Source: Candidatus Omnitrophota bacterium
GTDB lineage: Bacteria > Omnitrophota > Gorgyraeia > Zapsychrales > JANLHA01
Reading direction: 5' to 3'
Assembly: GCA_029560465.1 (NCBI GenBank)
Contig: JAKQKX010000090.1
Span: forward strand, 72,189-136,188
DNA length: 64,000 nucleotides
A program made the translations under genes and the position numbers. Under the pieces are notes generated by a model. The model worked only from the letters and a program-made list of their open reading frames with translations. It was not told the DNA's origin and searched no databases. Each line of letters starts with the position of its first letter. Positions within the stretch are counted from its first letter, which is position 1. Shown piece after piece: positions 12,819 through 41,275 of the stretch.

Positions 12819-12900
12819 TGGGCGGAAGAGGACTTGAACCTCCATGAGTTTCCCCACATGCTCCTAAGGCATGCGCGTCTACCAATTCCGCCATCCGCCC
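12819..12900 (-). tRNA. tRNA-Leu (anticodon TAG), type II with a long variable arm
   Basis: The acceptor stem is GGGCGGA/TCCGCCC. The D-arm GCGGAATTGGTAGACGCG is identical in pattern to E. coli tRNA-Leu. The anticodon stem is CATGC/GCATG with loop CTTAGGA, and the discriminator is A. Confidence 0.8.
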
Positions 12901-13142
12901 TTTAGATAGTTTGTGTCCCCGGCTTTATTGTAAATCCAAAGTGCGGTTCCCACACAAATATTTTACACTTTTATCCCGAGGCAAAAAGCATCTTCCCACA
13001 AAATCACGGATGAATCGCCCTCATGGCAGGATTCTAACCATATATTTTGAGCCGGGACAGCGCGATGAGCCGTGAAACATCCGGCCCGGGCAAGGTTACG
13101 CGTAAAATTCCATCTAAAGGACATCTTTGACTGAAAAATCAG

Positions 13143-13215
13143 TGACCCACCCGCGACTCGAACGCGGCACACCAGCCTTAAAAGGGCTGTGCTCTACCAC
13201 ATGAGCTAGTGGGTC
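13143..13215 (-). tRNA. tRNA-Lys (anticodon TTT)
   Basis: The acceptor stem is GACCCAC/GTGGGTC. The D-arm is GCTCATGTGGTAGAGC. The anticodon stem is CAGCC/GGCTG with loop CTTTTAA. The T-arm is CCGCGTTCGAGTCGCGG, and the discriminator is A. Confidence 0.8.
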
Positions 13216-19500: not shown

Positions 19501-20859
19501 ATTCCGGGCCGGTCGGCGCCGGGGGCTTCCGTTTACGAACCCCGCATCACCAAAGACGACATCATTTATTTCCCTTACCTCAGCCCCGTCCTGGATGAAA
19601 TCCTCATCGCCGCCTTTACCGCGCACGGGTATACCGCGCAGATCCTGCCGGTTGACCCGGCCATGATTCATCTCGGGTACAAGTATGTTTCCGGGGGAGA
19701 ATGTTTACCGAATGTCGCCGTGGTGGGTTCGATCATCGACCTTTTTCAAAAAGGCCGCTTCGACGTCAAGAAAGGCGTCTTGTATCTGGGCGACTCCTGC
19801 GTGGCCTGTAATTTCCATCAATACACGTCCCTGATCTGGGCCGCCTGCCGGAAAGCGGGGATTAAAAACTTGAGGATCTTCTCCCCCAAGCTGGGGGTCA
19901 CGGGCCAGGGGCTGCCCCAGGAACTTTCCTTTGACATAAGCGCTTCCAGCGTTTTAGGGTCACTCCTTTACAAACTGTATTTCCGCGTGCACCCCTACGA
20001 ACAGGAGCCCGGGGCGACTCAGCGCGCCCTGGACCGCTCCATCGCGATCATCAAAGGCTATTTAAATAAAAAACTGCCGCTTTGGGAAATTCCTGTTCAG
20101 AAACTCGGCGGAGAGCTTAGCGAACTTTATATAAAACATTTTATAAACGCCGGCCCAACCGCGGCCGGGGCGGAGCCGTCCGGCCGGGAGGATGAAAAGC
20201 AAAAAACTTTCTTTATAAATAAAATCAAAGAATTCCTGCACCCCAGCAAACATCTGCTCAACGCGGCGAAAGAAATCCGGTCGCTCTTTGAAGCCATCGC
20301 GGGAGCCGGGGAGAGAAAGCCTCGGGTCGGCCTTCTGGGGGACCTTTACGTGAAGTATAACCCGGTTTTAAACCAGGACATCTACAGCCTGATTGAAGAA
20401 CTCGGCGGCGAAATCCTCATCCCTTCCTATCTGGAAACCGGCGCGCATTTCATGGACGCAGCGGTCCGGGAAAGCGGGGCGGACAGGATGCCCCTGGTCA
20501 AACTGACAATGTACGAAAAAAGTTTTGAAGAGATCTTCCAGGGACTCCTGGACGAAGTGTTTGAGCCGCCGGTGGAAGAATGCGTCGAACTCATGCGGGC
20601 GTACGGGATAAAACATTTCATCCCCGGAGAAACGACAATCAACGTCTGCCGTCTGCTTTATTACGTCAAGCATAAACTGGTCGACGCCGTCATCCACCTT
20701 AACCCCATCCTCTGTTGTCCGGGGTCAGTGACGTCCTCGATCTACCGTAAAATGCAAAAAGATTTCAACATCCCGATCGTTGATATTTTTTATGACGGCA
20801 CCAACCGGCCCAACAGGATGATCGTCCCGCCCATGAGCACCCTAAAAAAGCCGCGATAA
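16558..20859 (+). CDS. giant fusion of two BadF/BadG/BcrA/BcrD-type (HgdC-like) ATPase/activase domains with an HgdB/DUF2229-like C-terminal domain
   Basis: The product is 1433 aa. A first acetate/sugar-kinase-fold ATPase domain starts at aa 1 (LGFDLGSRNIHYVAL ... LLLIGGVSRN). A second starts near aa 305 (LGIDVGSTSTKCILLD ... ASSVMNYVCAAGTGSF). A Cys-containing dehydratase-component-like region of about 850 aa follows. Confidence 0.7.
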   Translation: MKLGFDLGSRNIHYVALDNDTVVARETTEHQGDVLGRVQDLIQGARQRFGAIESFGITGNTSAAALCLIDPVLACTRANRFLKTGCRHILAIGCETFALIFLDAEGNYLEHSFSSDCASGTGSFLDQQAKRLGYSTEEFADKAFHFQGKTPAIATRCSVFAKSDIIHSQAEGFSKDAIAAGICEGVVRSILSYTLGGRKPDGPLLLIGGVSRNRKIVSEIEKKLGVPVIVPENPLTFNALGAALLGNGSDQPLLDGLSDIRVHRPSREKLEIKLTRYPDFSQDKTYTNDGVEVILYRALPGETLNAFLGIDVGSTSTKCILLDENKTVLYGLYTTTAGDPVAAVAKLFKELSRIFVSKTLNIRGAAVTGSGRQIIKEITGADLAVNEITAHARGATFLDPDVDTIIEIGGQDSKFTLLKNGYVASSVMNYVCAAGTGSFIEEQAKKLDVPLAAVSDLALGQEAPLTSSRCTVYMERDLNTYIAEGWSKPQILASVLFSVRDNYLSKVAGRTLLGNTIYFQGATARNKALVAAFENEIGKPILVSKYCHLTGALGAAVILMETGAPDSRFRGIDLDFKTDSELCDLCANHCSLTVFNINGARVAWGMKCGRDYDERRPGRANPLSRLEQEYQNIFEPLPRPHENAKTVGIPLTLYMKEYAALFVDFFENLGLNLILERNAAGHLEQGKAIARADFCSPMLVIHGLVKALAGKKIDMLFLPAFINTQSLLDSLPEEEHFLKKNRDSYFCYYSEYAPTIVNNLVTLDIKDILVSPKIKLNNQPVEKVAEDIAQSLAGHIPLPQADIVESFLTAYRADMKRKAQWRETGTRRLASGKDRIKILLLGRPYVVFDRTINSGIPAKLEALGYELIHQSMLDLPNEPGPFSSRYLDRMHWYYGQQILLATETALKNDNIYPVFLTNFHCSPDAYVVTYFKEMMENAGKPYLVIQLDEHCSDIGYQTRLEAGMDAFLNDFNRRKGHPNLPIPGRSAPGASVYEPRITKDDIIYFPYLSPVLDEILIAAFTAHGYTAQILPVDPAMIHLGYKYVSGGECLPNVAVVGSIIDLFQKGRFDVKKGVLYLGDSCVACNFHQYTSLIWAACRKAGIKNLRIFSPKLGVTGQGLPQELSFDISASSVLGSLLYKLYFRVHPYEQEPGATQRALDRSIAIIKGYLNKKLPLWEIPVQKLGGELSELYIKHFINAGPTAAGAEPSGREDEKQKTFFINKIKEFLHPSKHLLNAAKEIRSLFEAIAGAGERKPRVGLLGDLYVKYNPVLNQDIYSLIEELGGEILIPSYLETGAHFMDAAVRESGADRMPLVKLTMYEKSFEEIFQGLLDEVFEPPVEECVELMRAYGIKHFIPGETTINVCRLLYYVKHKLVDAVIHLNPILCCPGSVTSSIYRKMQKDFNIPIVDIFYDGTNRPNRMIVPPMSTLKKPR

Positions 20860-22640: not shown

Positions 22641-24503
22641 TCATTTCCAAGCCGGGACCGTGGCTGCCTGCCGCTCTTCCACCACCAGGCTCCTCACCAT
22701 GTCCTCAAAGATCTTCCGGCTTCCCTCAAATTGCTCCTGGCTGTTGGTATACTGAAAAGAAAAAATCGCGCCGCTGATTAAAAACTGATACCAGGCGGTT
22801 TTCCGGGTGCGGGCCTTATCCCCCATCTCAATATACGCCGCGCTCAAGCCGTTAATATCAACAGCCCTTGGCTCCGGGATATCCATCTCCCCGCCGACTT
22901 CTTTCTCCATGATCTTGTTGACATACCGGGAAAATTCCAGAGCGGTCGTGACCCCTTCCGGCAAATTATCCCGTGTCACGGCCACAGAAGGGAGCAGGCT
23001 GGCCGGGTCTTGAGCGTAGAGTAAAATCACGTATGTCCCGTTGGGCATCCTCGTGTTCCGGGCCCTCTGCCAGTTGTGAGGTGGGTTGATGGTCATGCGC
23101 GCCGACTGATAAAGGATTTCGTCCGGCTCACCGTCTTGGCCCGGGACGCCCACCCCGAGATTGGCGATCGCCTGCGTCGCGTCAAATAAAGTCGGGAAGC
23201 CTTCAAACGTCGCGTCCTCCGGCATGTCTCCGCCATAATAATGATCCCGGGCGTATTCCAGTGTCTCTTTCAGCTCCAGGGCAGCGGAATCATCCGGCTT
23301 CTTTTCCAGGGCCCGGGCGACCATTGCGTAACTCTTTTTAATATTCCCGGAATAATAATACCCCATCGCCGCCACCATCACCGCGTCCCGGCTGGCAGCG
23401 GCCTCGGGATTGACGGCGAGGGCTTTCTCGGCGAACTCCGCGGCCAAATCCCCCTTGCCGATCGCCACATAAGCGCCGGCCAAGTAAAGCAGGGCGTCGA
23501 GGTTATTTGGATCTTTTTTAAGCACCTCTAATTTTTCCTGTTCCATGGGAACGATTCCACGGGGCCCCGACACTCCCGCCGCCGGCGCAAGGCCGCCCTG
23601 GGCTCCCTTTTTATTATTAATATGCGCGGCCATTTTCTCACCGACACCCGCATATTGCGCGTCCATTTTTTCCGCCGCCTTAAAGTCAGCCATGGCTTTG
23701 TCCTGCTGGCCCATTTCAGCGTAAATCATCCCGCGGAAAAACCGGAACGAGGGGTCTTCAGGCGCAAGCTTAACAGCCTTATCAAGGTCTGCCACGGCCT
23801 TATCAAAAGCTTTCTGAAAGATATAAACCGCGGCCCGGGCGCCGTACCATTGCACGTTTTGTGGGTCCAATTCAATAATTTTCGTGCGGTCTTCCACGGC
23901 TTTATCCAGCTGGCCGGTTTCAGCATACAGTGTCCCTCGCGTCAAGTAAGCCTTAAGATACGAGGGATTCAGTTCAATCGCCCGGTTATAATCAGCCATC
24001 GCTTCCTGTTTTTTTCCCATTAAGGAATACGTCAAGCCACGGTTATAGTAAAGGATCGCTTCCGACGGTTTTAAATCAATCGCCCGTTGATAATCCTGCA
24101 AGGCTTTTTCAAATTCTTTTTTTATAGCGTAACAGCTGCCGCGGTGATTATAACCATCAAAGAAATCCGGCTGCTGCTCGATCACTTTGCTGAATATTTC
24201 AATCGCCTGGTCATACTGTCCGGATCTTTCATGAGACAAGCCCTCCTGGAACAACGGCCCCCCCACGAGAGGATCGGACGGGGAGTCCGCGGCGACCGGA
24301 GACGACACGGATGTTCCCTGCGCCTGTCGCACCAAAAACTGCAGATGGCGCATGGAATATTCCTGCACAATGATCGCCAGCCCCACGGCAAGCATAATAA
24401 ACGACAGGATCTTAACGAGTTTTACAACTTTTGTGAAGCACACGACGCCAAAAAGCAGCACCGCGATGTGAAAGAGGATAAAAGAAATATCATTCATAGT
24501 CAT
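22641..24503 (-). CDS. membrane-anchored tetratricopeptide-repeat protein
   Basis: The 620-aa product has two N-terminal TM helices. Multiple TPR units (AxxYxxxGxxyxxxgxydxAixxyxkA) run through the C-terminal 450 aa. Confidence 0.7.
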   Translation of the reverse strand: MTMNDISFILFHIAVLLFGVVCFTKVVKLVKILSFIMLAVGLAIIVQEYSMRHLQFLVRQAQGTSVSSPVAADSPSDPLVGGPLFQEGLSHERSGQYDQAIEIFSKVIEQQPDFFDGYNHRGSCYAIKKEFEKALQDYQRAIDLKPSEAILYYNRGLTYSLMGKKQEAMADYNRAIELNPSYLKAYLTRGTLYAETGQLDKAVEDRTKIIELDPQNVQWYGARAAVYIFQKAFDKAVADLDKAVKLAPEDPSFRFFRGMIYAEMGQQDKAMADFKAAEKMDAQYAGVGEKMAAHINNKKGAQGGLAPAAGVSGPRGIVPMEQEKLEVLKKDPNNLDALLYLAGAYVAIGKGDLAAEFAEKALAVNPEAAASRDAVMVAAMGYYYSGNIKKSYAMVARALEKKPDDSAALELKETLEYARDHYYGGDMPEDATFEGFPTLFDATQAIANLGVGVPGQDGEPDEILYQSARMTINPPHNWQRARNTRMPNGTYVILLYAQDPASLLPSVAVTRDNLPEGVTTALEFSRYVNKIMEKEVGGEMDIPEPRAVDINGLSAAYIEMGDKARTRKTAWYQFLISGAIFSFQYTNSQEQFEGSRKIFEDMVRSLVVEERQAATVPAWK

Positions 24504-26605: not shown

Positions 26606-27283
26606 GTGATCATGGTTTTAAAAAGCGTAAAAGTTCCCGCGCCCATGGTGCCAATTTTTGAAGAGGCTGAGAAGTTTGTTAATAAATACTTTGACTCTTT
26701 TTATTCCAACAAGCTGGAGGGCAAGATCTCCATCAGCGGCGAGCGCTATATCTTGCTGAACGCCAAATCGTTAAGGGTTAACTTCGCCAAAAACTTAAGC
26801 GAAGCCATGGGCTTGTCTGACGACATGGCTCAGGACGCTGCCGATAATTTCCTGTACATCTTAGCCAGATCTATCGGCCGGGAAGACGCCAAAAGATTCG
26901 CGGCCAAACAACAGGTCGCCGACCCGGTTGCCAAGCTGGCCGCAGGGCCGATAAGCTTTAATTACACCGGCTGGGCGTTCGTAGACATTTTCCCTGAAAG
27001 CAAACCATCCCCGGACAAAAATTATTTGCTGATATATGACCACCCCTATTCTTTTGAATGCGACGCTTACCTCTCCGTTAAAGGCGCTCAGTCCGTCAAG
27101 CCGGTTTGTGTCATGAATGCGGGTTACTCTTCGGGTTGGTGCTCCGAAAGCTTTGGCATGGAATTGGACGCGAAAAAAATTATGTGCAAAGCCAAAGGAG
27201 ACCCGGCCTGCCGTTTTGTCATGGGTGTTAAAGAAAAGTTGGCTGGCTACGCCGAGTGGGCGTTAAACAATATCCGGCGGTAA
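26606..27283 (+). CDS. V4R (4-vinyl reductase / hydrocarbon-binding-like) domain protein
   Basis: The 225-aa product has a C-terminal block GYSSGWCSESFG ... CKAKGDPACRFVMG, matching the conserved Cys/Gly pattern of V4R domains. The assignment is by motif only. Confidence 0.45.
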   Translation: MIMVLKSVKVPAPMVPIFEEAEKFVNKYFDSFYSNKLEGKISISGERYILLNAKSLRVNFAKNLSEAMGLSDDMAQDAADNFLYILARSIGREDAKRFAAKQQVADPVAKLAAGPISFNYTGWAFVDIFPESKPSPDKNYLLIYDHPYSFECDAYLSVKGAQSVKPVCVMNAGYSSGWCSESFGMELDAKKIMCKAKGDPACRFVMGVKEKLAGYAEWALNNIRR

Positions 27284-27292
27284 GGTTAAACC

Positions 27293-27535
27293 ATGCCCGA
27301 TCTTTATGATAAAGTTTATAAGGAATGCGCGGTCTATTTCGGGGCGGAGACAAAAAGATTCCTGGACCGGCAGATAGAATGCCATCTCAGCAAAACACCG
27401 CGGAGCCTCGACTATCCTGATATAAACATGCTGGCCAAATGGATCCGGATTTCCGGGGGGCTTCTCCTGCCGAAGGAGAAAGCGGAAAAGCTGTCCGCGA
27501 AAATACTCGCGTTAAAGCCGGGACCGGTCTCTTGA
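27293..27535 (+). CDS. small hypothetical protein
   Basis: The 80-aa ORF starts 9 nt after the V4R stop and ends 18 nt before lpxB on the same strand, so it is probably co-transcribed. No family was recognised. Confidence 0.35.
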   Translation: MPDLYDKVYKECAVYFGAETKRFLDRQIECHLSKTPRSLDYPDINMLAKWIRISGGLLLPKEKAEKLSAKILALKPGPVS

Positions 27536-27553: not shown

Positions 27554-28714
27554 ATGTCAAAAACTAATCCCCATTTCATTATCGTGGCCGGCGAAGCCTC
27601 CGGAGACATGCACGCAGCCCACCTGGTCCGCGCGATCAAAGAACGCTGCCCCCAGGCGTCCTTTTCCGGGCTCGGCGGGCCCCAAATGGCAGCCGAAGGG
27701 GTTGATCTCCTGACCGACTTAACCCGTTGGGCCGTCGTGGGGTTTGTGGAAGTCCTGAAACATTACCAAAAATTCAAAAAAATTTTTTACCTCCTGCTCG
27801 CCCACGTCAAAGACACCCGGCCCGACGCCGTTATCCTGGTGGATTACCCGGGCTTCAACCTGCGACTGGCCCCGGAAATCAAAAAACTGGGTATCCGGGT
27901 GATCTACTACATCAGCCCGCAGGTCTGGGCCTGGAAAGAAAAGCGCGTAGAGACGATCCGGGATCACACCGACCGCTTGCTCGTGCTGTTCCCGTTTGAA
28001 AAAGGATTTTACGCGCGCCATCACATTGACGTCACCCTGGTGGGGCACCCCCTTGTTGACATCGTAAAAACGCAGGAAGAACCGCGCGATTACCTCCGGG
28101 ACCACGGGATCCCCGAGGGCAAAACCGTGATCGGCCTCCTCCCCGGCTCCCGCCTCAACGAAATCAATAATTTGCTCCCGGCGATGCTTGAGGCCGGCCA
28201 TGAGATCAGAGCCAAAACCCTGTCCCCTGTCCAGTTTCTGCTCTTTAAAGCCCCCACCATCCCTCTCGATCTTTTAGAACAGCACATCCGGAAGCAGGGG
28301 CTGCCTGTCCGGATCCTGGAAACCAACATCTACGACGGAATCCAGTCCTGCGCCCTCTGCCTCGTGGCATCAGGGACCGCGACACTTGAAACCGCCATCC
28401 TCAACACGCCCATGGTCATCATCTACAAGACCACGTTCCTCACCTGGCTGCTGGCCAAACTGTTCATTAAGATTCCCTGCATCGGACTGGTTAATATCGT
28501 GGCGGGGAAAAAAATAGTCCCGGAATGCGTTCAGCAGGAAGCCAACGCGCGCACCATCGCGCAGGAAGCCATGAAGATATTAAGCGACAGCGAAAAACGG
28601 ATACACATGAAGAAAGAATTGAGCCGGGTTAAAGAGCTTCTGGGAGACCCCGGAGCCAGCGGACGAGCCGCGGAAGAAGTGCTGCGCGTGGTTCAAGACA
28701 CGGCGGCAAGATGA
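27554..28714 (+). CDS. lpxB: lipid-A-disaccharide synthase
   Basis: The 386-aa product starts IVAGEASGDMHAAHLVRAIK, with GT19 family blocks along the full length. Confidence 0.85.
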   Translation: MSKTNPHFIIVAGEASGDMHAAHLVRAIKERCPQASFSGLGGPQMAAEGVDLLTDLTRWAVVGFVEVLKHYQKFKKIFYLLLAHVKDTRPDAVILVDYPGFNLRLAPEIKKLGIRVIYYISPQVWAWKEKRVETIRDHTDRLLVLFPFEKGFYARHHIDVTLVGHPLVDIVKTQEEPRDYLRDHGIPEGKTVIGLLPGSRLNEINNLLPAMLEAGHEIRAKTLSPVQFLLFKAPTIPLDLLEQHIRKQGLPVRILETNIYDGIQSCALCLVASGTATLETAILNTPMVIIYKTTFLTWLLAKLFIKIPCIGLVNIVAGKKIVPECVQQEANARTIAQEAMKILSDSEKRIHMKKELSRVKELLGDPGASGRAAEEVLRVVQDTAAR

Positions 28715-28733
28715 CCCCTGTTATTTCAGGGGT
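28714..28733. terminator. hairpin (ACCCCTG-ttattt-CAGGGGT) overlapping the convergent stop codons of lpxB and the Cys-rich protein gene
   Basis: A perfect 7-bp inverted repeat is visible directly. No strong T-tract is present on either side. Confidence 0.3.
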
Positions 28734-29263
28734 TCCCCGCAATCTTCAGGACAATTGCACCGACTTTCAAAATTAGTACAAACCCCATCCCCGCAAGGGA
28801 TGCAAATCGGCAGGCTGTATATTGACCCCCGGCCTTCCATGTCACAGGTACCGTCCAGGAATTCAATTCCGCAGCGGCGGATCAGCCCTGGACAACATTC
28901 CACATCCTGCCCCTCGTAAGCCAGGTCCCCGCACTGGGCCTTCTCCCCCAGCATCTGGTAATGACACACTTTCTCGTTCGAACAGTTCACCATAACCGCG
29001 CAGTAATCTTGAGGGCAGGAGTCAGCGGAGATGTCCGGGCATTCCCGGGGCAGGCACAGGACTTGGTCTTTGCCCTCCGAATCTATAACCGTCTTTTCCC
29101 AACAGATTTCTTCCGGGCATTCCCCCGTTTCTCCGTACTGTTGGGCGCAAAGTTCCCGGAACGTCTTCTTCCCTGCCGCATGCGTCCCCGGGATCAGCAC
29201 AGCGGCGCAAGCAACCGAAACTCCCGTTATCATCAGCCATTTGGCCCTGCATGTCCTTATCAT
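28721..29263 (-). CDS. secreted cysteine-rich protein (26 Cys in 180 aa)
   Basis: The product has an N-terminal signal peptide, then Cys-dense modules. The C-terminal CGDGVCTNFESRCNCPEDCG resembles the CGDGxC...CPxDCG bacterial extracellular Cys-rich repeat. Confidence 0.55.
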   Translation of the reverse strand: MIRTCRAKWLMITGVSVACAAVLIPGTHAAGKKTFRELCAQQYGETGECPEEICWEKTVIDSEGKDQVLCLPRECPDISADSCPQDYCAVMVNCSNEKVCHYQMLGEKAQCGDLAYEGQDVECCPGLIRRCGIEFLDGTCDMEGRGSIYSLPICIPCGDGVCTNFESRCNCPEDCGEPLK

Positions 29264-29611
29264 TTTTCCTCCATCTTATATTTCTTATTGACAAATTTTC
29301 TGTGGCTCATCGGTTAAACGCCCCGCCTTTTTCCGGTATCCATCCGGACGATTTCCCGCCGCAGCGATCTTCCGTCCGATCAAACGCGTGACAGGAAAAA
29401 CTTCAATTTTATCCTGCACATTCCCGGCAACTCCATAATATCATAAAAATTAAGGTAATTTGCGCACATTTTTTGATTGTAAAAATTACCGCATTCCCGT
29501 TTCCGGCGTAATCAGCGCGGCTTCCCGCTCCGCGTTGGGAAGGACCTCCCGGGCATGATAAGCTTTAATAAACGGCCCCAGCCCTGCGGTAAAGATTCCC
29601 GCCGACAAATC

Positions 29612-30373
29612 TCACAGGAGCTCAACCGTGCCTGCCTCAACCCAGCCTGTCTTCTGGTCAGGCCTCTCAATCTTAAGCCATGGCCCTTCCCTCTTGAGGG
29701 CCTTCACCTTCTGTCCTTCCTTAACCGTAAAATGAACGGTGGCATCATGGCGGGGCTCGAAGCGCGCTTCCGTGGAAGACACGGCAAACCCCTCCCCCGC
29801 CCGGACATGCATTTTAACAATAACACCCGCCGCACATAACACGCTCAACGTCAAACAGGCGGTTATGACAAAGGATATTTTCTGCCGTGGCCAGGTGAAA
29901 AACAGTGCCGCTAAAAATAACCCGCCGGCCATAGTCATGAGGACAACCGTCAACACAACAAGTTCATTGACCGTATAATAATTCAGGGCGCCTTCCGCCG
30001 TCTTTTGTATCATGCTCTTGCGAGGCAAAGGAAAATTTTGTTCTTTTTGTGAAAGCGTCAGTTTATAATTTGACAGGACATCGGAATCACGGGGCAGGAG
30101 CTCCCGGGCGCGTTCATAATTCAGGATCGCTTTCCCAAGTTGCCCCTTTTTAAAATAAGCGTTGGCTAAATTATAATAGAGTGCGCCGCTGACCCGGCCC
30201 TGCTGAAGCAGGTGTTCATACTGAACGATGGCTTCGTCATACCGGCCTTCTTGATAAGCAAAGCCCGCCTTGATAAACGTCGCCCAGGCATCCTCTTTCG
30301 GCCTCTCCGCCGCCGCGGCCGGCCTGAAAAGAATCACTCCTGTTATGATAATAACGGCTACAAACTGTTTCAT
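29612..30373 (-). CDS. batE: BatE-like TPR + TM + SH3b protein
   Basis: The 253-aa product has a signal peptide, TPR repeats, two TM helices and a C-terminal SH3-like region (GWVEAGTVELL). It is the last gene of the Bat operon. Confidence 0.65.
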   Translation of the reverse strand: MKQFVAVIIITGVILFRPAAAAERPKEDAWATFIKAGFAYQEGRYDEAIVQYEHLLQQGRVSGALYYNLANAYFKKGQLGKAILNYERARELLPRDSDVLSNYKLTLSQKEQNFPLPRKSMIQKTAEGALNYYTVNELVVLTVVLMTMAGGLFLAALFFTWPRQKISFVITACLTLSVLCAAGVIVKMHVRAGEGFAVSSTEARFEPRHDATVHFTVKEGQKVKALKREGPWLKIERPDQKTGWVEAGTVELL

Positions 30374-32193
30374 TTTCCGTTCTTTTCTATAGATTCAATC
30401 ATCTCCGTGACTCTGGCAAAGCTCCCGGCCATCTGTTCCCTGCGCGGCTGAACCAAAGCGTACCGGACGCTCTCGCATTCCGCATAAAACGCCCGGACCT
30501 GTTCAAGGACCGTTTCCGCGGCCTTTTTCTCCTTCAGGACGTTAAGAACGACGTCCATCGACACCGCCCCTCCCGGGATATGAAATGTGTTGCTGAAATA
30601 ATTCTGCACGGTCTTAAACAACATATCGTAAAACTGCCGGCTGTCACCCTGCGCCATAAAACCCTGGGCCTCTTTGAGCCCCGCCCTCGCCACGCGGGGG
30701 GCGTGAAACCGCCGGGCAAAACGGGTATCCGTCGCCAGTTTCCGGTGAAAATGATAATAGCCATATAAACCGCTCCAGGTCAGGACAAGGACAACGGCCA
30801 GCACCCAGAAGCCTGGACGCTGAAAAAGAAACAAGCGGTCCCTGGGATAAAACGGGCCGGGCCGGTCTTTGATAAAAAGGATATCCTGGCCGAGGGTTTC
30901 CGGCTCAATCGAATATTGCCCCGGAACCGCGCCCAGCCCCACGATCTTAAGCTGCTCGCCCTCTTTAAGCTTGGAAATCGTTAGCGGAAACGGGCCGCGA
31001 GTGACCGTTTTGTACTGACGGCTTCCTGTGTCAAAATAAGAAAAACTCACCGCGGGAAACGCCTTGATATTTTCGGAAGTCGGCACCGCCACCTGCTCGA
31101 TGGACTTACTGTTCGCATTCTCCGTGGACTGGGGTTCGTAGAACTTAAAAGCGCCCTCCCCGCCCAGCGCCGGCATCTGAACCGCGTCAGGGTTCCCGGG
31201 CCCGGTCACCGTCATGCGCACGGTGAGCGGATCGCCCACCTTAAGTTCCGTCGGGGTGACAGTGGCGTCGAAATCATACGGGCCCACCGCCCCCGAAAAA
31301 TCTTTCGGCCGGCCCTCTTCCGGCAGCGGCAGGACCGGGATTCTCAAGTCCGCCGACTTGACCGAAATGGTCTGCTGATCGTAATCTTCAAACAACCCCC
31401 GGAAAAAACTGTCGTTGAGGAAACCGTCCACACGGCTGAACGGCGAGCGCGCCGCGGGGTTCTTAAACAGGATATCACAGACGATCTCGGCCGGCCCCAA
31501 GGTCAGGGCTCCTGGCCTCGTCGGGTAAACCTGGGCATAGAACGTGATGACGTCGTATTTCAGGCCGCCGAGGATTTCGGTCGACTGCTGAATGTCCTGC
31601 GAACTCTTCAGCGCGAACCCGACATGATCCATCTCCGGATAATGGACATTCCGGACCGACAAATTCTGGATATAAAGTTTCATCGTCACCGGGACCCGCT
31701 CATTGACGTAATATTCCCTCTGCGGCACGGACAAGGTTAAAAATATTTTATCCTGCAGGGAATCCTTGGGGCCGTTGAGACGGTTCTGCCCCGCCGCCGG
31801 GGACGCGGTGACTTCCAAATATATCGGTTCGGTGGAATATGTCTTCCCGTTGACAGCCACGTTCATCGCCGGGATCGTGTAACGGCCTTCGGAAAGCGGA
31901 TAAAGGTTATACTGAAAAGACCGGGAGGCGGAGTATTGGCCGTTGATCAACGTGATGCTGGTGGACGGGCCCAGATAGCGCGATTCCATCCCTTCAATCT
32001 TGGGCAACACCACGGGTTCTACTTTTTGCGCCCCCTGAACCGTGATTTTAAGCTGGCAAAACGATCCAAGCTCAAGGCTCCGGCGGTCCACTTCCGCGGT
32101 GACAGAAACATCATCCGCCGCAGCCGGCCTCCCTGCGCAGGACAACAGCGCGAGGCATATGAAAAACACTTGGCCAATTTTCTTGGAAATCAT
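30370..32193 (-). CDS. batD: BatD-like (oxygen-tolerance) protein
   Basis: The 607-aa product has a signal peptide, a large extracytoplasmic beta-rich domain and a C-terminal TM helix plus cytoplasmic tail. Its position between batC and batE supports the call. Confidence 0.65.
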   Translation of the reverse strand: MISKKIGQVFFICLALLSCAGRPAAADDVSVTAEVDRRSLELGSFCQLKITVQGAQKVEPVVLPKIEGMESRYLGPSTSITLINGQYSASRSFQYNLYPLSEGRYTIPAMNVAVNGKTYSTEPIYLEVTASPAAGQNRLNGPKDSLQDKIFLTLSVPQREYYVNERVPVTMKLYIQNLSVRNVHYPEMDHVGFALKSSQDIQQSTEILGGLKYDVITFYAQVYPTRPGALTLGPAEIVCDILFKNPAARSPFSRVDGFLNDSFFRGLFEDYDQQTISVKSADLRIPVLPLPEEGRPKDFSGAVGPYDFDATVTPTELKVGDPLTVRMTVTGPGNPDAVQMPALGGEGAFKFYEPQSTENANSKSIEQVAVPTSENIKAFPAVSFSYFDTGSRQYKTVTRGPFPLTISKLKEGEQLKIVGLGAVPGQYSIEPETLGQDILFIKDRPGPFYPRDRLFLFQRPGFWVLAVVLVLTWSGLYGYYHFHRKLATDTRFARRFHAPRVARAGLKEAQGFMAQGDSRQFYDMLFKTVQNYFSNTFHIPGGAVSMDVVLNVLKEKKAAETVLEQVRAFYAECESVRYALVQPRREQMAGSFARVTEMIESIEKNGK

Positions 32194-32199
32194 ACAGGA

Positions 32200-33171
32200 T
32201 TACCAATCTTTCTCCACCGGCGCTTCCGCATTGGGCGGAAGGACGGCATTAAAAAACATTTGCGGCTCTTCATTGCTTTGATATCTGTTTAAAAGCATGC
32301 GGGCTTCTTCCGGAGTAAAATACGTGTATTGCTTTTTAGCCTGCGCTTTCCCCTGGCCCGTTTGTGGCGGGGACGCCGAGGCGTCGTCTCCAGAATCCCC
32401 CCCGGAGCCGTCATTTTGCTGCTGCTCTTGCCCCTCCGCCTCGGGAGGGCGTTCTTCCCCCTCCCCGTCACGCTGTCCCCGGCTCCCATCATTCTCTTGC
32501 GAGCCGTTTTGCGGCTGATCGTCCGCTTCCCTGGAGGAGGGGTCCTTGTCTTGAGCGTCCCCGCGGCCGTCCTGATCCTGACTTTTAGAACTCTGGTCTT
32601 GCCCTTCCTGACCGCCCTTTTTCTGCGATTCGCTCTCCTGCTTTTCCTGCTCTTTCTTCAGCCGCTCGAGTTCTTGGCGCGCAATTTCATAATTATAATG
32701 AGCGTCCTCGTCTTTGTCATCTATTTTAAAAGCGTTTTCATAAAAAGTCATTGCCTCTTCCAGGGAAGAAATCGCCTTCTTAAGGTCGGACGGTTCCTGC
32801 TGAAGCCCCAATCGGAAAGACGCGTTCCCCAAATTATAATAAGCCTTCTGGCGAAGGGCGTCCTTTTCCGCAAGCAGGGCTTTCTGCAGATGAATCCGCG
32901 CCTGGTCATAATGATTCGTCTTGTATTGCGCCGTCCCAAGGTTATAATTCATCAACGAAGATTCCGGGTCCCGGCTCAGCGCCTCCTGATACCGCGCGGC
33001 GGCGTCCTCATACTGGCCGTCTTGGTAAAGCGCGTGCCCCAAACGCGTGCTCTTTTGGGGCGACCGGGCCAGGGCACACGGCGACACCGCCATGTTAATC
33101 CCGGCGGCCAGAAGCAGCCATCCGAGGGTCTTCATCCTCGTCCCCGCCCACTCACGCGTCCAATCGGCCAT
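32200..33171 (-). CDS. batC: BatC-like TPR protein with a long acidic, low-complexity C-terminal tail
   Basis: The product has a signal peptide and TPR units. The tail is rich in Q/E/D/G/S (QEKQESESQKKGGQEGQDQSSKSQDQDGRGD...). Confidence 0.6.
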   Translation of the reverse strand: MADWTREWAGTRMKTLGWLLLAAGINMAVSPCALARSPQKSTRLGHALYQDGQYEDAAARYQEALSRDPESSLMNYNLGTAQYKTNHYDQARIHLQKALLAEKDALRQKAYYNLGNASFRLGLQQEPSDLKKAISSLEEAMTFYENAFKIDDKDEDAHYNYEIARQELERLKKEQEKQESESQKKGGQEGQDQSSKSQDQDGRGDAQDKDPSSREADDQPQNGSQENDGSRGQRDGEGEERPPEAEGQEQQQNDGSGGDSGDDASASPPQTGQGKAQAKKQYTYFTPEEARMLLNRYQSNEEPQMFFNAVLPPNAEAPVEKDW

Positions 33172-34174
33172 TGCGGTCCTCTCTCCTTAAAGGCAGAAAA
33201 AATTCCCATAACAAAAAAAACAGCGCGGCTCCGAGAGGGAGCTGAAAACGCTCAAAATAATTTTTCGCCATCGTGGTTTCCAATTCCCGCTTCTCCAAAC
33301 GAGCCAGCTGTTTTTCATAAATCACGTCCAGCCCGAATTCCGCCCCGCTGGCCCGCACATAGACACCGCCGGTCTCAAGCGCGATCCTCTGAAGCAGCTC
33401 CTCATTCAGGCGGGATTTGACAATATTGCCCTGCCCATCCTTGAGGTAACTCGGCTGGCCGAAAATATCGGCGTCTTTGATCAATTCCCCGGATTGTGTC
33501 CCGATCCCGACACAATAAATTTTAACCCCCTTGTCCTTGGCTTCCTTAACAGCCACAAACGGGTCTTCTTCCAGGTTTTCCCCGTCCGTTATGATAATCA
33601 CCGCCTTGTACCGGCTGGGAGTATTGTCGTATTCCCTCAACGCTTCCTGCAGGGCCCGCGCGATATTGGTCCCGCCCCGGGGAATGGTCTTTTTGTCCAA
33701 ATGATCCAGGCTTAACAAAAACCCTCCGTAATCGACGGTCAGCGGGCAGATCAAAAACGCGTCGCCGGAAAAGGCGATTAACCCGACGCGGTCACCCTTC
33801 AACTGCCGCAGGAAATCCCGGACCGCCAGCTTCGCCCGCTCAAGCCGGTTTGGCTTCACATCATCAGCGAGCATGCTGCGGGATGTGTCGATCACCAGCA
33901 GGATATCCAGCCCCTGCCGTTTGATTTCCCGCATTTCATAACCCCACTGCGGCCGGGCTAACGCCACCAGGCTGAATGCAAAAACAGCCAGGAGCAGACC
34001 GTGCTTAAACACGTGCCGTCCCGGGACCAGCGTGGCCGCGAGATCCAGGAATAACTTCTGTTCAGCGAAGCGATCATAACACTTCTGCCGGCGGCGCCGG
34101 GCCAGGCTCAAGAAAGCGGCCAAGAGCACCAGCCCCCAGAGGCCATAAAAAAATTCAGGGAAGACAAAACGCAT
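33152..34174 (-). CDS. batB: BatB-like vWA domain protein
   Basis: The 340-aa product has an N-terminal TM and a vWA domain with the MIDAS motif DTSRSM. A C-terminal TM follows. Confidence 0.75.
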   Translation of the reverse strand: MRFVFPEFFYGLWGLVLLAAFLSLARRRRQKCYDRFAEQKLFLDLAATLVPGRHVFKHGLLLAVFAFSLVALARPQWGYEMREIKRQGLDILLVIDTSRSMLADDVKPNRLERAKLAVRDFLRQLKGDRVGLIAFSGDAFLICPLTVDYGGFLLSLDHLDKKTIPRGGTNIARALQEALREYDNTPSRYKAVIIITDGENLEEDPFVAVKEAKDKGVKIYCVGIGTQSGELIKDADIFGQPSYLKDGQGNIVKSRLNEELLQRIALETGGVYVRASGAEFGLDVIYEKQLARLEKRELETTMAKNYFERFQLPLGAALFFLLWEFFLPLRREDRNGRLDA

Positions 34175-35170
34175 TTAAGGAATCCTCAGCCAGACCGTAT
34201 GGAATAATAACAACTCGACCCCAAGCAACACCAAGGCCGCCGCCAGGGCATAGGGAAAAAGTTCTTTATAGTCCCGGTAACCCGTTTCTTCAAACGGCGT
34301 CTTTTCCATTTGATCAATTTCTTTGTAAATCTGCCGCAGGGACGCCGTGTCCGTGGCCCGGAAATACTGTCCCCCCGAGACACGGGCCATCTCCCGCAAA
34401 GTGTCCTCATCCACATCCGTGATGACCTGCTGATACCGGGTCCGGCCAAACACATCCTCCACGGGATACGGGGCGTAACCTTTCGTGCCCGCGCCGATCG
34501 TATAAATTCTGACCCCGTACGCCGCAGAAGCGTGAGCCGCCTCCAGCGGGTCAACGGTCCCGGCATTATTGACTCCGTCAGTCAAAAGGATAATGACCTT
34601 ACTTTTAGCGTCACTCTCCCGCAGGCGGATCAGCGCCGTGCTGGTTGCGGATCCGATCGCCGTGCCATCTTTAATCAAGTCAAACTCGATCCGCTTCAGG
34701 TTCTCTTTCAGCCAGACATAATCCTTGGTCAGCGGGCAGACCGTGTAAGCCAGGCCGGAAAAAACCACGAGCCCGATCCGGTCGTGCTGGCGGCCGTCAA
34801 CAAATTCCTCCACCACCTTCTTACTGATCTCCAGCCGGTTGTACCGTTTCCCCAGGAACGAAAAATCCTCGGCAGCCATGCTGCGGGAAGCGTCCAGCGC
34901 CAGCATAATATCAATGCCTTCAAAATGGTACTTCGTCTCTTCCCGCACAGCGCGCGGCCCGGCCAGCGCCACGATGAACAGCCCCACCGTCAAGACCCGA
35001 AGGATAAACAGGACCCCCATAAACCGGGTCTTCCAGCTGCGGGGCAGCGGGAGCAGCAGGTGCCGGGACGGAAAACGCACCGAAGGCGGCCTGGCGTTCC
35101 GGTTCCGCCAGATCATAAACGGCACAACCACCGGAATGAGGATCAAAATCCACGGCGTTTTAAAAATCAT
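34175..35170 (-). CDS. batA: BatA-like vWA domain protein
   Basis: The 331-aa product has an N-terminal TM, a vWA domain with MIDAS motif DASRSM and a C-terminal TM. The batB start follows immediately. Confidence 0.75.
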   Translation of the reverse strand: MIFKTPWILILIPVVVPFMIWRNRNARPPSVRFPSRHLLLPLPRSWKTRFMGVLFILRVLTVGLFIVALAGPRAVREETKYHFEGIDIMLALDASRSMAAEDFSFLGKRYNRLEISKKVVEEFVDGRQHDRIGLVVFSGLAYTVCPLTKDYVWLKENLKRIEFDLIKDGTAIGSATSTALIRLRESDAKSKVIILLTDGVNNAGTVDPLEAAHASAAYGVRIYTIGAGTKGYAPYPVEDVFGRTRYQQVITDVDEDTLREMARVSGGQYFRATDTASLRQIYKEIDQMEKTPFEETGYRDYKELFPYALAAALVLLGVELLLFHTVWLRIP

Positions 35171-35239: not shown

Positions 35240-35797
35240 TTATGTCTGCGGCTGCGTGTCCGCAACCAGCTGCCAAACCAGATTCCAACCGCGCTCCATT
35301 TCATGGAGCGACGATGAAAACCTGGCGAACTTCACCATATCGCAACAGGTAAGGAACTCCTGCAAAGACAATTTATGTTGAGCGTTGAGCGCGGGCGCCG
35401 CCTTAAGGTGAGACAAAAATTCCTCGGTGGTCATCTCCGGGGCCCGGATTTGGAAACGCCCTTCCATATACCGGCGGAGGATGTCGGATAATTCCGTATA
35501 AAAACTTTTCACATCCTCCCCGCCGGACAAGCCCGTGTCCTTCAAAGCTCTCAAGCGTTGGAACGCCGTTTCCCAGGGCGGGGAAGCCGGGGGCGGCGGG
35601 GTAACACATCGCGGGGACAACCTGTTGCGCAACACCCACGCCGCCAGTCCTCCCAGAAAAATCAGGAGCACCAACACCGCCCAAATCCCGTTATGCCCAG
35701 GCAAAAGGACCGGCGGCTTAACGTCGCGGATATCGTCAGCCCAGGCCATCGCCGGCACGAAAAAGCCCGAAATCAAAAATAAAAGAAATTCCTGCAT
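35240..35797 (-). CDS. DUF4381-like membrane protein of the Bat/MoxR operon
   Basis: The 185-aa product has a signal/TM segment, a Pro-rich linker and a C-terminal helical domain. Its position between the DUF58 gene and batA matches the canonical operon. Confidence 0.5.
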   Translation of the reverse strand: MQEFLLFLISGFFVPAMAWADDIRDVKPPVLLPGHNGIWAVLVLLIFLGGLAAWVLRNRLSPRCVTPPPPASPPWETAFQRLRALKDTGLSGGEDVKSFYTELSDILRRYMEGRFQIRAPEMTTEEFLSHLKAAPALNAQHKLSLQEFLTCCDMVKFARFSSSLHEMERGWNLVWQLVADTQPQT

Positions 35798-35804: not shown

Positions 35805-36719
35805 TCACTTCAAGCGCCTGCGCCGCTTTGAAAAAAATTTCACCAACTCCTTGGCGTAAGGGACCCCGGTGGAAACCGGGACATGATCAATCCCGACCGA
35901 GCGGAACAGCTTCTCCCTGGCCCTCCATCTCCGGTCAGCCAGCCCGCGGTATTGGGCTCTAACACCCGCGTTCGTCGTATCCACAATCGCCCGTTCCCCT
36001 GTTTCCGCGTCTTCAAGGGTCAGAAGCCCGCAGTCCGGGAGTTCCGCCTCCCGGCGGTCATTCAGGGTTATGGCAATAACGTCATGCTTTTTATTGGCAA
36101 TGGCGAGCGCCTTTCTAAGGCGGGAGTCGGCTGGGATTTCTTCCCCGGACAGGCATTCCCGGTCCATGAAATCCGAAATCAAAAAGGCCACGCTGCGGCG
36201 GTTCGTCACCTTGCTCAAATATTCCAGCGCCCAGGCGATATCGGTTTTCGCGCTTTGCGGGCGGAAATACAGCACCTCACGGATGACTTTCAGGACGCTT
36301 TTAACCCCTTTCCGGGGAGGCATGAATTTCTCAATCTGGTCCGTGAAAATAATAAGGCCGACTTTATCTTTGTTGCGGATGGCTGAAAACGCCAACACCG
36401 CTGCGATTTCCGCCGCCAGTTTGGCCTTCAGCGCGTTCTCGGAGGCGAAACGGCAGGACAGGGACACGTCCACGCAAATCATGACGGTTAACTCCCGCTC
36501 CTCGACGAACTTTTTGACATGCGCCTTCCCCGTGCGGGCCGTGACGTTCCAATCAATTGTCCGGATGTCGTCCCCCAGCTGATACTCCCGGACTTCATCA
36601 AACTCAATGCCCTGCCCCTTGAACACACTATGGTATTGCCCGGCGAAGATATCATTCACAAGCCGGGACGACGTGATCTGAATACGCCGGACCTTTTGCA
36701 ACAATTCCTTGGGGATCAT
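35805..36719 (-). CDS. DUF58 (vWA-like) protein, MoxR partner
   Basis: The 304-aa product sits directly downstream of the MoxR ATPase. It has a DUF58-typical conserved core (VREYQLGDDIRTIDW). Confidence 0.75.
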   Translation of the reverse strand: MIPKELLQKVRRIQITSSRLVNDIFAGQYHSVFKGQGIEFDEVREYQLGDDIRTIDWNVTARTGKAHVKKFVEERELTVMICVDVSLSCRFASENALKAKLAAEIAAVLAFSAIRNKDKVGLIIFTDQIEKFMPPRKGVKSVLKVIREVLYFRPQSAKTDIAWALEYLSKVTNRRSVAFLISDFMDRECLSGEEIPADSRLRKALAIANKKHDVIAITLNDRREAELPDCGLLTLEDAETGERAIVDTTNAGVRAQYRGLADRRWRAREKLFRSVGIDHVPVSTGVPYAKELVKFFSKRRRRLK

Positions 36720-36730: not shown

Positions 36731-37744
36731 TTAAGGCACTTCAATTTCATCAAATATTTTCTTAATAATGTCTTCGGAAGTCTGCTCTTCGGCTTCGGCT
36801 TCATAGCTGATGATCACGCGATGGCGCAGGACATCCATTCCGATCGTCTTGATATCCTGGGGGGTCACGTAACCCCGCCCCAGCAGAAACGCGTATGCCT
36901 TGGACGCCAAAGCCAGGTTGATGGTCGCGCGCGGAGACGCGCCATATTGGATCAGCCCTTTTAATTCCGGCATATCATACGCTTCGGGGTTGCGGGTGGC
37001 GTCAATAAGGTTAACGATATACTGCTCAATTTTTTCATCCATGTAAATCTCATCGACAACGGATCTGGCCCTGATAATGTCCGCCGGGGTCACAACCTGC
37101 TGGACATGAAACTGCGGATTGGTAAAAGACATCCTCTTGAGGATTTTGAGCTCCTCGCTTTTGTAAGGATATCCGATTCTGACTTTCAGCATGAACCGGT
37201 CGACTTGGGCTTCCGGCAGAGGATAGGTGCCCTCTTGTTCGATGGGATTCTGGGTCGCCAGGACCAAAAACGGATCTTGGAGTTTCAGGGTTTCTTCCCC
37301 GATCGTGATCTGGCGTTCCTGCATAGCCTCCAGAAGGGCGCTCTGGACCTTGGCCGGCGCCCGGTTAATTTCGTCAGCCAGGATAATATTAGCGAACAGC
37401 GGCCCTTTTTTAATGGAAAAATCTCCCGTGCGCTGGTCATAAATAAGCGTGCCGGTCAGGTCCGCGGGCAGCATATCAGGCGTAAACTGCAGCCGCTGGA
37501 ATTTTGTTTGAATCGTTTCCGAAAGGGTCTTCACGGCAGTGGTTTTAGCCAAACCGGGCACCCCTTCAATCAGGATATGCCCGTTGGCGAGCAACCCGAC
37601 AAGCAGCCTCTCCAAGAGATCCCGCTGCCCGATGATCACCTTCCCCACCTCCATCAGGATCGCTTCCACGAAACTGCTTTCTTGCTTCACCTTTTCATTG
37701 ATTGCGGCAATGTTATGATCCGTCATAACCTGGCCTCCTCTCAC
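36731..37744 (-). CDS. moxR: MoxR-family AAA+ ATPase
   Basis: The 337-aa product has a Walker A motif GVPGLAKT and a Walker B motif IILADEINRA. The C-terminal AAA lid is typical of MoxR. Confidence 0.85.
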   Translation of the reverse strand: MRGGQVMTDHNIAAINEKVKQESSFVEAILMEVGKVIIGQRDLLERLLVGLLANGHILIEGVPGLAKTTAVKTLSETIQTKFQRLQFTPDMLPADLTGTLIYDQRTGDFSIKKGPLFANIILADEINRAPAKVQSALLEAMQERQITIGEETLKLQDPFLVLATQNPIEQEGTYPLPEAQVDRFMLKVRIGYPYKSEELKILKRMSFTNPQFHVQQVVTPADIIRARSVVDEIYMDEKIEQYIVNLIDATRNPEAYDMPELKGLIQYGASPRATINLALASKAYAFLLGRGYVTPQDIKTIGMDVLRHRVIISYEAEAEEQTSEDIIKKIFDEIEVP

Positions 37745-40900: not shown

Positions 40901-41275
40901 TAAATCATGGGCGCGGATCTTCATCGTTTGGCGGGTCGCGGCTCCCGCCCCCCGAAACGGCTCCCAAACGTGGACTTGGGCGCCAGAAGAAACTTTTAAA
41001 AACGTCCGGAATCCCTGCAAAGAAGTTAAACGGTACGCTTTATTGGCCGGAAGGAATTCCAGGATCGCTTTATCTTTGCTTTCAATGCCAAAGCTGGAAA
41101 TGCACTGCCCGCGGTTCACGTAGAACACCCACATCGGAATCCCCCAGAGGCCGGCGATTCCCGGGAAAAAATTGCTGAAAGGTTTGGTTTGGTTATATTG
41201 GCGGATCACAAATTCTTCTTCTGCCGTAAAATGATACGTGGAAGCAGATGTTCTCTGGGTACTCTTTGTTTTCAT
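37988..41275 (-). CDS. large (1095 aa) putative glycoside phosphorylase/hydrolase, distantly GH94/GH161-like
   Basis: The ORF is long and continuous. A motif ADKPSWYDALNGLPG resembles the catalytic xDWND(A/G)LN block of GH94-type phosphorylases. The overall size fits bacterial beta-glucan phosphorylases. The gene call is secure; the function is a low-confidence inference. Confidence 0.35.
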   Translation of the reverse strand: MKTKSTQRTSASTYHFTAEEEFVIRQYNQTKPFSNFFPGIAGLWGIPMWVFYVNRGQCISSFGIESKDKAILEFLPANKAYRLTSLQGFRTFLKVSSGAQVHVWEPFRGAGAATRQTMKIRAHDLTIEDVHPGLGLRVTVNYFTVASESYPALVRRVCFENMSRKNMRIECVDGLPLLMPYGMRDWALKNMSRTVEAWVRVNNLKHKAPYYHLNVEVADSPQVQHITEGHFYFCFAEGTPKPVLLDPIVDPAVVFGPNLDYVCPQEFFNRKIFKIPTVQHTSNRTPSAMSYGAFSLPLGRAKTLTALTGYASSEKQLNRIVRQATAPGYVDKKALENKAVVDEVKHYVWMHSASPDLDQYVRQTFLDNVLRGGLPVSLPTAEGSEVFNVYSRKHGDPERDYNYFVLSPSYFSQGNGNYRDVNQNRRTDVWFNRDVKDTHIFTFLNLIQADGYNPLVVKGLSYAVAKPDKLKGVLKTCLKNPGQDIEKLGVFLEQSFQPGQLLKMVVDHDIKLAVAPAAFLGEILSLCQKNELADHGEGFWTDHWTYNLDLIESYLAIYPEMLRSLLWDKKGFSFFLNTHYVLPRGQRFLLTPQGVRQYHAVYNDIKNIDAAAKGYKLRVQDGEGDVYYTNLFAKLLCLVANKAASFDPSGIGIEMEADKPSWYDALNGLPGLLGSSISETLELKRLCLFLENAFDRLLLGEGEPLWVFAELGNFIRELQALFSEEDDPLQLWHRSHDIKEHYRLRIRKGIEGGEHELTVGQIRAFLSAVINRVDRGVALAAPGDELLPTYFYHEVTDYALLDKTHQDWHYVMPVNFRRHTLPLFLEGFVHWLRVESDPDHARTLYRALRRSPLYDKKLKMYKVNADLSRETEEIGRTRIFPPGWLENESIWLHMEYKYCLELLRNGLYEEFYETFRDVLIPFQNPERYGRSHLENSSFIVSSAHPDASLHGQGFVARLSGSTAEFIQMWLWMCAGRQPFYVDNNRELNLELKPVLPAWLFSPKAATKVFGGPGDGQPETLPAHAFAFNLRGHTLTVYHNPKMKSTFGRDPAVARNITLQYYNRKGSVEIEGPVIPAPYAEDVRDNKIRRIDVFLD

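Follow-up and report, generated by a model that had tools for sequence, protein, structure and literature searches.

CysR, an uncurated family of cysteine-rich, predicted secreted proteins across Omnitrophota that is frequently encoded behind the Bat operon

Introduction

Small extracellular domains in which a few short strands are stapled together by many disulfides form a well-known general class, exemplified by the EGF, LDL-A, Dickkopf/colipase, TIL, and cystine-knot modules of eukaryotes. Among bacterial proteins, the Myxococcus cysteine-rich repeat (TIGR02232; DUF4215, PF13948) is known from extracellular proteins, among them proteins of Myxococcota, and is marked by a motif of the CGDG.C type that is followed, a few positions on, by an acidic residue. 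Cysteine-rich exported envelope proteins are also found in chlamydiae (OmcA and OmcB), and the OP3/Omnitrophota lineage is generally placed near the PVC group.

A further described system with a bearing on this work is the Bat (Bacteroides aerotolerance) operon, MoxR-DUF58-BatA-E, which is functionally obscure (PMC3557215). The canonical operons of Bacteroides and Leptospira consist of bat genes only (PMC3557215). As summarized in that source, the original 1999 proposal was of a periplasmic Bat complex that supplies reducing power and keeps the periplasm reduced, and the phenotype of a Bacteroides fragilis Bat mutant was partly rescued by reducing agents (Tang 1999, via PMC3557215). Leptospira bat deletion mutants have no oxidative-stress phenotype (PMC3557215). 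In Borrelia, the VWA domain of a BatA-like protein was shown experimentally to face the periplasm (PMC5700661).

Here, we describe a cysteine-rich protein, CysR, that is encoded at the end of a complete Bat operon in an Omnitrophota genome. CysR falls within the general class of small disulfide-rich extracellular domains and, judged by sequence comparison, is a new uncurated family found across Omnitrophota.

Results

The window analyzed here is a stretch of 64,000 nucleotides from a Candidatus Omnitrophota bacterium (contig JAKQKX010000090.1). Its list of open reading frames contains, on the minus strand at 28721-29263, an ATG-started frame of 180 aa with the stop codon at 28721-28723, which is where a sequence-only reading of this DNA had placed a secreted cysteine-rich protein; we refer to this protein as CysR. 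Direct reading of the sequence reveals a Shine-Dalgarno element, GGAGG (29268-29272, minus strand), 4 nt 5′ of the ATG. The composition of the gene (GC 0.55, GC3 0.62) is similar to that of neighboring genes, and dN/dS amounts to 0.07 against the orthologue from L005 and 0.16 against that from L001. Because of the ribosome-binding site, the neighbor-like composition, the low dN/dS, and the homologues described below, we conclude that CysR is a real gene under purifying selection. A spurious-ORF reading of 28721-29263 was dropped on the basis of the dN/dS values, the ribosome-binding site, and the homologues. The reservation voiced beforehand, that the frame might have no homologues and poor codon usage, does not apply, given at least 117 homologues and a GC3 like that of the neighbors.

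The protein contains 22 cysteines (12% Cys) and not the 26 previously counted, with C5 and C19 in the leader and 20 in the 151-aa mature part, which is acidic (calculated pI 4.3) and has a mass of 16.6 kDa. The cysteine motifs quoted in the sequence-only reading (CPEEIC, CLPREC, CPQDYC, CCPG, and CIPCGDGVCTNFESRCNCPEDCG) are all present, and the spacings include a CxxC (C154/C157) and a CxC (C169/C171). Residues 1-29 (29177-29263, minus strand; MIRTCRAKWLMITGVSVACAAVLIPGTHA, followed by AGKK) were assigned as a signal peptide from the hydrophobic stretch, the helix in the AF2 model (residues 3-22), and the leaders of homologues. The earlier suggestion of a signal peptide agrees with the hydrophobic, signal-like segment at residues 7-25, which forms the core of a leader with a basic N terminus and a THA/AG site. 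All CysR homologues in the alignment carry an N-terminal hydrophobic leader, the sequence of which is unconserved. The leader thus resembles a type I Sec signal, with probable cleavage after THA. A lipobox-like VSVAC is present at residues 15-19; however, C19 is not conserved, and a loose lipobox pattern was found in only 9 of 117 homologues, with some of these matches outside of the leader. A lipoprotein reading is therefore disfavored and type I cleavage favored. Together, an export-like leader and 20 cysteines in a 151-aa mature part agree with the prior description of a small, secreted, cysteine-dense protein.

The mature protein is divided into two subdomains. The N-terminal subdomain (residues 30-105; 28949-29176, minus strand) has nine conserved cysteines and contains CP...C motifs; AF2 predicts one helix and two beta-hairpins in it, at a pLDDT of 95-98 over residues 31-100. 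The C-terminal subdomain (residues 106-180; 28724-28948, minus strand) has 11 conserved cysteines, was delimited by sequence identity and by its recurrence as a repeat in other proteins, and carries the motif CGDLAY.GQDVECC.GL..RCG...DGTCDM.G......PICIPCGDG.C..FE..CNCPEDC, which corresponds to a promiscuous module of ∼60 aa. Against homologues, the median identity is 38% over residues 35-105 (29% without Cys) and 72% over residues 106-176 (67% without Cys). Since non-Cys identity in the C-terminal subdomain is high, its conservation suggests an interaction surface there and not a scaffold alone.

As proposed in the sequence-only reading, the structure was predicted, and the AF2 model built from a 60-sequence alignment is confident (pLDDT 89.4, pTM 0.72), with one helix and several short hairpins; for the disulfide pairing, which the same proposal had assigned to AlphaFold, the co-loss of cysteines described below served as a proxy. 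When modeled alone, the C-terminal subdomain has a pLDDT of 75.5, a decrease consistent with tight packing against the N-terminal subdomain. Scans of CysR against Pfam and NCBIfam, including TIGR02232, returned no family at E≤10. Among PDB sequences, neither the single sequence nor a 60-sequence profile retrieved anything but noise (E≥0.2). Foldseek found no match at E≤0.001 for the full model in PDB (best E 1.5) or BFVD, or for the C-terminal subdomain in PDB (best E 2.2). No enzyme, metal-cluster, or known-fold match for CysR was thus found in Pfam, NCBIfam, PDB sequences, or Foldseek against PDB and BFVD.

These searches bear on the described systems introduced above. The TIGR02232 scan suggested in the sequence-only reading gave no match even at E≤10, and none was obtained for multi-repeat relatives either, so that membership of CysR in TIGR02232/PF13948 was rejected. 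The CysR unit is also longer (∼60 aa, 11-12 Cys) than the Myxococcus repeat and ends in C.CP.DC, and CysR and all of its Omnitrophota homologues have one CGDG.C...CP.DC unit per protein instead of tandem arrays. In contrast to the eukaryotic modules, CysR has no Pfam match and no Foldseek match in PDB, although its acidic loops are reminiscent of the calcium-binding LDL-A or cbEGF modules. OmcA and OmcB, as cysteine-rich exported proteins of related bacteria, offer an analogy for a disulfide-stabilized envelope, but CysR has no sequence or Pfam relationship to them (E≤10), and its pairwise cysteine pattern suggests intramolecular knots and not intermolecular cross-linking.

A search of 5.8 billion proteins identified at least 117 CysR homologues with E values down to 1e-102. 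Those with a named source are all from Candidatus Omnitrophota/Omnitrophica and are all annotated as "hypothetical protein," and no Pfam domain was found in any of the 117. Among 60 aligned homologues (34-83% identity), each of the 20 mature cysteines is either invariant or conserved to 90% or more, and the same holds for the string CIPCGDG.C..FEN.CNCPEDC near the C terminus. When one genome per GTDB species was scanned, 193 relatives were obtained, among which the full-length matches come from ∼46 distinct loci in Omnitrophota, with a single locus in each genome; some of these MAGs are mislabeled "Planctomycetales." A few Myxococcota/Polyangiales proteins of 196-219 aa share the two-subdomain layout and, unlike CysR, look like lipoproteins with lipoprotein signal peptides. 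The homologue survey called for in the sequence-only reading thus outlines a full-length family across Omnitrophota with few members in Myxococcota. Based on the alignment and an HMM census of 175 full-length members, the family is defined by a signal peptide followed by two subdomains, an N-terminal one with CP...C motifs and a C-terminal one of the form CC.GL...CIPCGDG.C..FEN.CNCPEDC, and by a total of 20-22 conserved cysteines. Literature searches combining Omnitrophota with "cysteine-rich" or with Bat, or using the literal motifs CGDGIC, CGNGIC, and CPEDC, returned nothing relevant.

For the census, an HMM was built from the CysR alignment and the presence of each cysteine was scored in the 175 full-length members, with co-loss taken as an evolutionary proxy for disulfide connectivity. 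An extra pair of cysteines at profile positions 54 and 63 is present in 87 of the 175 members, and both are absent in at least 30 sequences, including the clade of the window. This pair sits in the loop after C54 and was lost by the window's clade. Co-absence was also observed, in small numbers out of 175, for C94 and C131 (three sequences), C140 and C169 (two), and C54 and C70 (two). Profile positions 35 and 55 hardly ever carry a cysteine in the same sequence, a pattern that suggests a positional switch of the partner in one disulfide. Because cysteines are lost in pairs and motifs of the CxxCH or ferredoxin type are absent, this pattern points to disulfides over metal clusters. No HMM match to metallothionein, ferredoxin, or c-type cytochrome was obtained, their diagnostic motifs are absent, and the predicted fold is ordered. 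Counted against a disulfide knot is that many Omnitrophota are anaerobes.

The same data allow a partial assignment of connectivity. A minimal four-cysteine unit, C-x4-C-x8-C-x3-C, stands alone in archaeal proteins (e.g., P0209), which implies that C157, C162, C171, and C175 form a self-contained unit with two disulfides. Given subdomains with nine and 11 cysteines, respectively, at least one bridge would have to connect the two, and the co-loss data point to C94-C131. In total, CysR would hold about ten intramolecular disulfides.

Beyond the full-length family, the C-terminal subdomain is found in many other proteins. The CysR profile gave 672 matches at E≤1e-3, 38 of them below 1e-30, among 1.84 billion cluster representatives, and profile positions ∼117-177 occur as two to nine tandem copies in larger proteins such as P0138 (746 aa, eight copies), P0172, P0209, and one of 7,017 aa. 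Module-bearing loci were identified in Myxococcota, Woesearchaeota, Altiarchaeia, Methanosarcinales, Patescibacteria, and Phycisphaerae, often with SLH-like, Ig-like, or CARDB domains or beta-helix-like repeat sequence as partners. In Myxococcota, archaea, and Patescibacteria, the module resides in extracellular proteins that have a signal peptide, bear SLH domains, or are lipoproteins. Pfam and NCBIfam scans of ten and then eight multi-repeat relatives found no curated model covering the module, but only unrelated Ig-like, Kazal, and SLH-type or subthreshold matches. This surface-protein module, CC.GL...C..CGDG.C...E...C.CP.DC (P0138, P0172, P0209; L059, L065, L083), is homologous to the C-terminal subdomain of CysR, with profile E values of 1e-10 to 1e-37 and the same cysteine framework. 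It differs in that it occurs in two to nine tandem copies, its conservation is limited to the cysteines and the G/D/E/N/P motif, and the proteins that carry it have no N-terminal subdomain, whereas Omnitrophota CysR has a single, highly conserved copy fused to one. The sequence-only reading was therefore right that the C-terminal block resembles a repeat of extracellular proteins (672 cluster representatives, up to eight to nine tandem copies), although not in pointing to TIGR02232, and its view that such proteins are rare in bacteria is overstated for the C-terminal module, which is widespread in uncultured lineages. In one Myxococcota MAG (L067), a secreted 171-aa protein with the C-terminal module (10001-10228) is encoded 8.5 kb upstream of a MoxR-DUF58 pair (18731-20226); this proximity is probably a coincidence.

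The gene had been described as lone. In the window, CysR is the last gene of a co-directional array, all on the minus strand, that includes a complete Bat operon identified by Pfam: a MoxR ATPase (36731-37744), DUF58 (35805-36719), DUF4381 (35240-35797), BatA (34175-35170), BatB (33152-34174), the TPR protein BatC (32200-33171), BatD (30370-32193), and batE (29612-30373; TPR and SH3_3, also supported by synteny) immediately upstream of CysR. BatA, BatB, and DUF58 have each kept the MIDAS motif DxSxS intact. The 348-bp gap between batE and CysR (29264-29611) contains, on the same strand at 29287-29572, the remnant of a frameshifted DUF4288 gene; a tblastn search that used the intact ∼140-aa genes from L001, L005, and L006 as queries matched it in two separate frames (E 3e-18 and 2e-11). 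Of these genes, the one from L001 matches PF14119. An intact ∼140-aa DUF4288 gene fills the batE-CysR slot in L001, L006, L044, L045, and L046, and in relatives the intact gene and the CysR start codon overlap by at least 4 bp. On the minus strand of the gap, neither a promoter-like nor a terminator-like site was detected.

On the other side, CysR converges with lpxB (27554-28714, plus strand; assigned by PF02684 on orthologous genes and by tblastn synteny), with 6 bp separating the two stop codons, in line with the convergent arrangement noted earlier. A perfect 7-bp GC-rich hairpin without a U-tract (ACCCCTG-6 nt-CAGGGGT, 28714-28733) covers both stop codons at this junction, with folding energies of −19.3 and −20.0 kcal/mol (z −2.2 and −2.5). 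No canonical terminator was scored at the junction; the hairpin could stop transcription in both directions or influence RNA stability.

Several other features of the window were recorded. Between msbA and lpxB (26606-27535, plus strand) lie the gene for a 225-aa protein with a V4R domain and an ORF of 80 aa, a pair found among the loci compared only in the window and its closest relative, L005; elsewhere in Omnitrophota, no gene or a different one occupies this position, for example a GFO/IDH/MocA oxidoreductase gene in L001 and a response regulator gene in L002. Pfam assigns no family to a cytoplasmic protein of 1,095 aa (37988-41275, minus strand), which matches the NCBIfam model of GH149 beta-1,3-glucan phosphorylase far below threshold (E 1.5e-32, 112 bits versus a cutoff of 1150) and is, by this similarity, a distant GH149-like glucan phosphorylase relative. 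Some Omnitrophota are magnetotactic, and the best NCBIfam match of a 620-aa TPR protein (22641-24503, minus strand) is MamA (E 8.8e-36, 123 bits, cutoff 200), which probably reflects generic TPR similarity. A 1,433-aa protein (16558-20859, plus strand) has two acyl-CoA dehydratase activase (BcrA/BadF-type ATPase) regions (TIGR00241, E 4e-84). The sole Rfam matches in the window are three clustered tRNA genes, Gly-GCC, Leu-TAG, and Lys-TTT (12594-13215, minus strand).

Across Omnitrophota, the most constant neighbor of CysR is the convergent lpxB, followed by msbA; lpxB is convergent and adjacent in 41 of the 46 distinct loci. A same-strand batE lies directly upstream of CysR in ∼35 of the 46, and the window shares this adjacency to batA-E. 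Many of the junctions have gaps of 0-20 bp or 4-bp/ATGA-type overlaps (e.g., L023, L030, L033, L050, L011, L013). However, no bat genes were found upstream of CysR in 11 loci (L017, L019, L028, L032, L035, L037, L039, L042, L047, L048, L052) within the 10 kb scanned in most of them and the 1.7-2.8 kb scanned in L017 and L032, so that co-occurrence is not obligate within this sequence. There, CysR is equally tightly placed behind an orthologue of the 1,095-aa gene (56% identity) or behind an ExbB-ExbD-cyclophilin-PqiA block. The Bat-less loci form a loose cluster in a distance tree, with Bat-containing loci interspersed. No Bat neighbors were found beside the full-length Myxococcota homologues. 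Because of these 11 loci and the Myxococcota homologues, the link of CysR to Bat is frequent and not obligatory, and it is probably transcriptional. The Bat operon is thus a same-strand and often translationally coupled genomic partner of CysR, which is absent among the bat genes described for Bacteroides and Leptospira (PMC3557215).

Discussion

The explanation that we prefer, with confidence somewhat better than even, is that CysR is a disulfide-knotted binding protein of the periplasm or envelope, encoded by the last cistron of the array, in which the conserved acidic face of the C-terminal subdomain is the functional part. Under this model, CysR would be a Sec-exported acidic protein of about 16.6 kDa that folds in the periplasm into a rigid knot of two subdomains, with about ten intramolecular disulfides and at least one bridge between the subdomains. 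It would be a non-enzyme in which the fast-evolving N-terminal subdomain serves as a scaffold for the strongly conserved C-terminal one. The putative binding surface would be formed by the invariant non-Cys residues Y116, G118, Q119, D137, M142, F165, E166, N170, P172, E173, and D174, and its ligand could be a partner protein and/or a divalent cation. A binding role is the default suggested by a conserved surface together with the lack of catalytic signatures, and residence in the periplasm or envelope is likewise what we infer. CysR would be translated last in a long, envelope-related co-directional array, behind the MoxR-VWA Bat operon in most Omnitrophota, and may be an accessory to the Bat complex.

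A closer tie to Bat is conceivable, but we consider it distinctly less probable: CysR could be a dedicated ninth Bat component, a periplasmic ligand or subunit that docks on the VWA (MIDAS) domains of BatA/BatB or on BatD/BatE. By analogy with integrin ligands, an invariant acidic residue of the FE..CNCPEDC loop could then complete the metal coordination. The same-strand adjacency of batE and CysR in ∼35 of 46 species-level loci, many with short gaps or 4-bp overlaps, argues for such a component, as do the minus-strand gap free of promoter-like or terminator-like sites, the intact MIDAS motifs of BatA and BatB, the invariance of E166, E173, and D174, and the periplasm-facing BatA-like VWA domain of Borrelia (PMC5700661). 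However, in 11 loci CysR sits beside lpxB and the upstream sequence, up to 10 kb, is free of Bat genes, the Bat-less CysR genes are equally tightly coupled to the GH149-like gene of about 1,100 aa or to a PqiA-like gene, full-length Myxococcota homologues have no Bat neighbors, and no such gene is reported in the Bat operons of Bacteroides and Leptospira (PMC3557215). The adjacency may also reflect mere gene-order conservation in one phylum. A more specific form, to which we give a little less weight still, would make CysR an Omnitrophota-specific periplasmic Bat subunit or ligand, with the invariant acidic CPEDC/FEN loop plugging the BatA/BatB MIDAS or with the ten disulfides acting as a redox-active element, which was missing from the 1999 hypothesis of periplasmic reducing power.

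Redox activity also enters a reading that we judge improbable, in which CysR is a thiol redox buffer or a metallothionein-like or Fe-S-like periplasmic metal-binding protein with the cysteines as functional ligands; in one version, CysR would be the carrier of the "reducing power" proposed for the Bat system. The 12% cysteine content, the CxxC and CxC spacings, and the partial rescue of the B. fragilis Bat mutant by reductants (Tang 1999, as summarized in PMC3557215) are consistent with this, whereas Leptospira bat deletions have no oxidative-stress phenotype (PMC3557215). In addition, Pfam and NCBIfam gave no metallothionein, ferredoxin, or cytochrome match at E≤10, CxxCxxCxxxCP and CxxCH motifs are absent, cysteines are gained and lost two at a time and not in the threes or fours of ligand sets, sequence alone yields a high-confidence fold prediction, and the C-terminal module serves as a structural repeat in large extracellular proteins. 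Cysteine spacing and pairwise co-loss likewise speak against a metallothionein or ferredoxin, a match to which the sequence-only reading had named as a reason to abandon its view. That reading had also raised a toxin or adhesin, to which nothing in the analysis points. Omnitrophota are thought to include host-dependent nanobacteria, and a protein acting against or on host cells would fit with CysR being small, acidic, and, as predicted, secreted and disulfide-stabilized, like many eukaryotic toxins and adhesive modules, and with related modules in giant surface proteins. Against this, CysR is present in one copy, keeps its place beside lpxB/msbA throughout the phylum, and evolves under strong purifying selection (dN/dS 0.07-0.16), whereas genes involved in conflict typically turn over fast; its neighbors include no gene of a secretion system and none that is immunity-like, and no toxin family or fold was matched in Pfam, NCBIfam, or Foldseek against PDB and BFVD. 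We therefore regard a toxin or adhesin as very improbable.

CysR is a discovery at the level of a DUF, with no evidence of a new mechanism, and merits a DUF-type family definition. The family and its cysteine-rich module of ∼60 aa have no Pfam or NCBIfam model, no relative of solved structure, and no Foldseek match in PDB or BFVD, and the module is widespread in uncultured Omnitrophota, Myxococcota, DPANN-type archaea, and Patescibacteria. Because CysR is single-copy, strongly constrained, located at the end of the Bat operon, and beside the LPS genes lpxB and msbA, it is a candidate envelope component in a phylum on which hardly any experimental work exists. CysR may also offer a way into the function of Bat/MoxR-VWA systems and, should the Bat-subunit reading be true, would provide the first concrete handle on the target of the widespread and functionally obscure Bat system.
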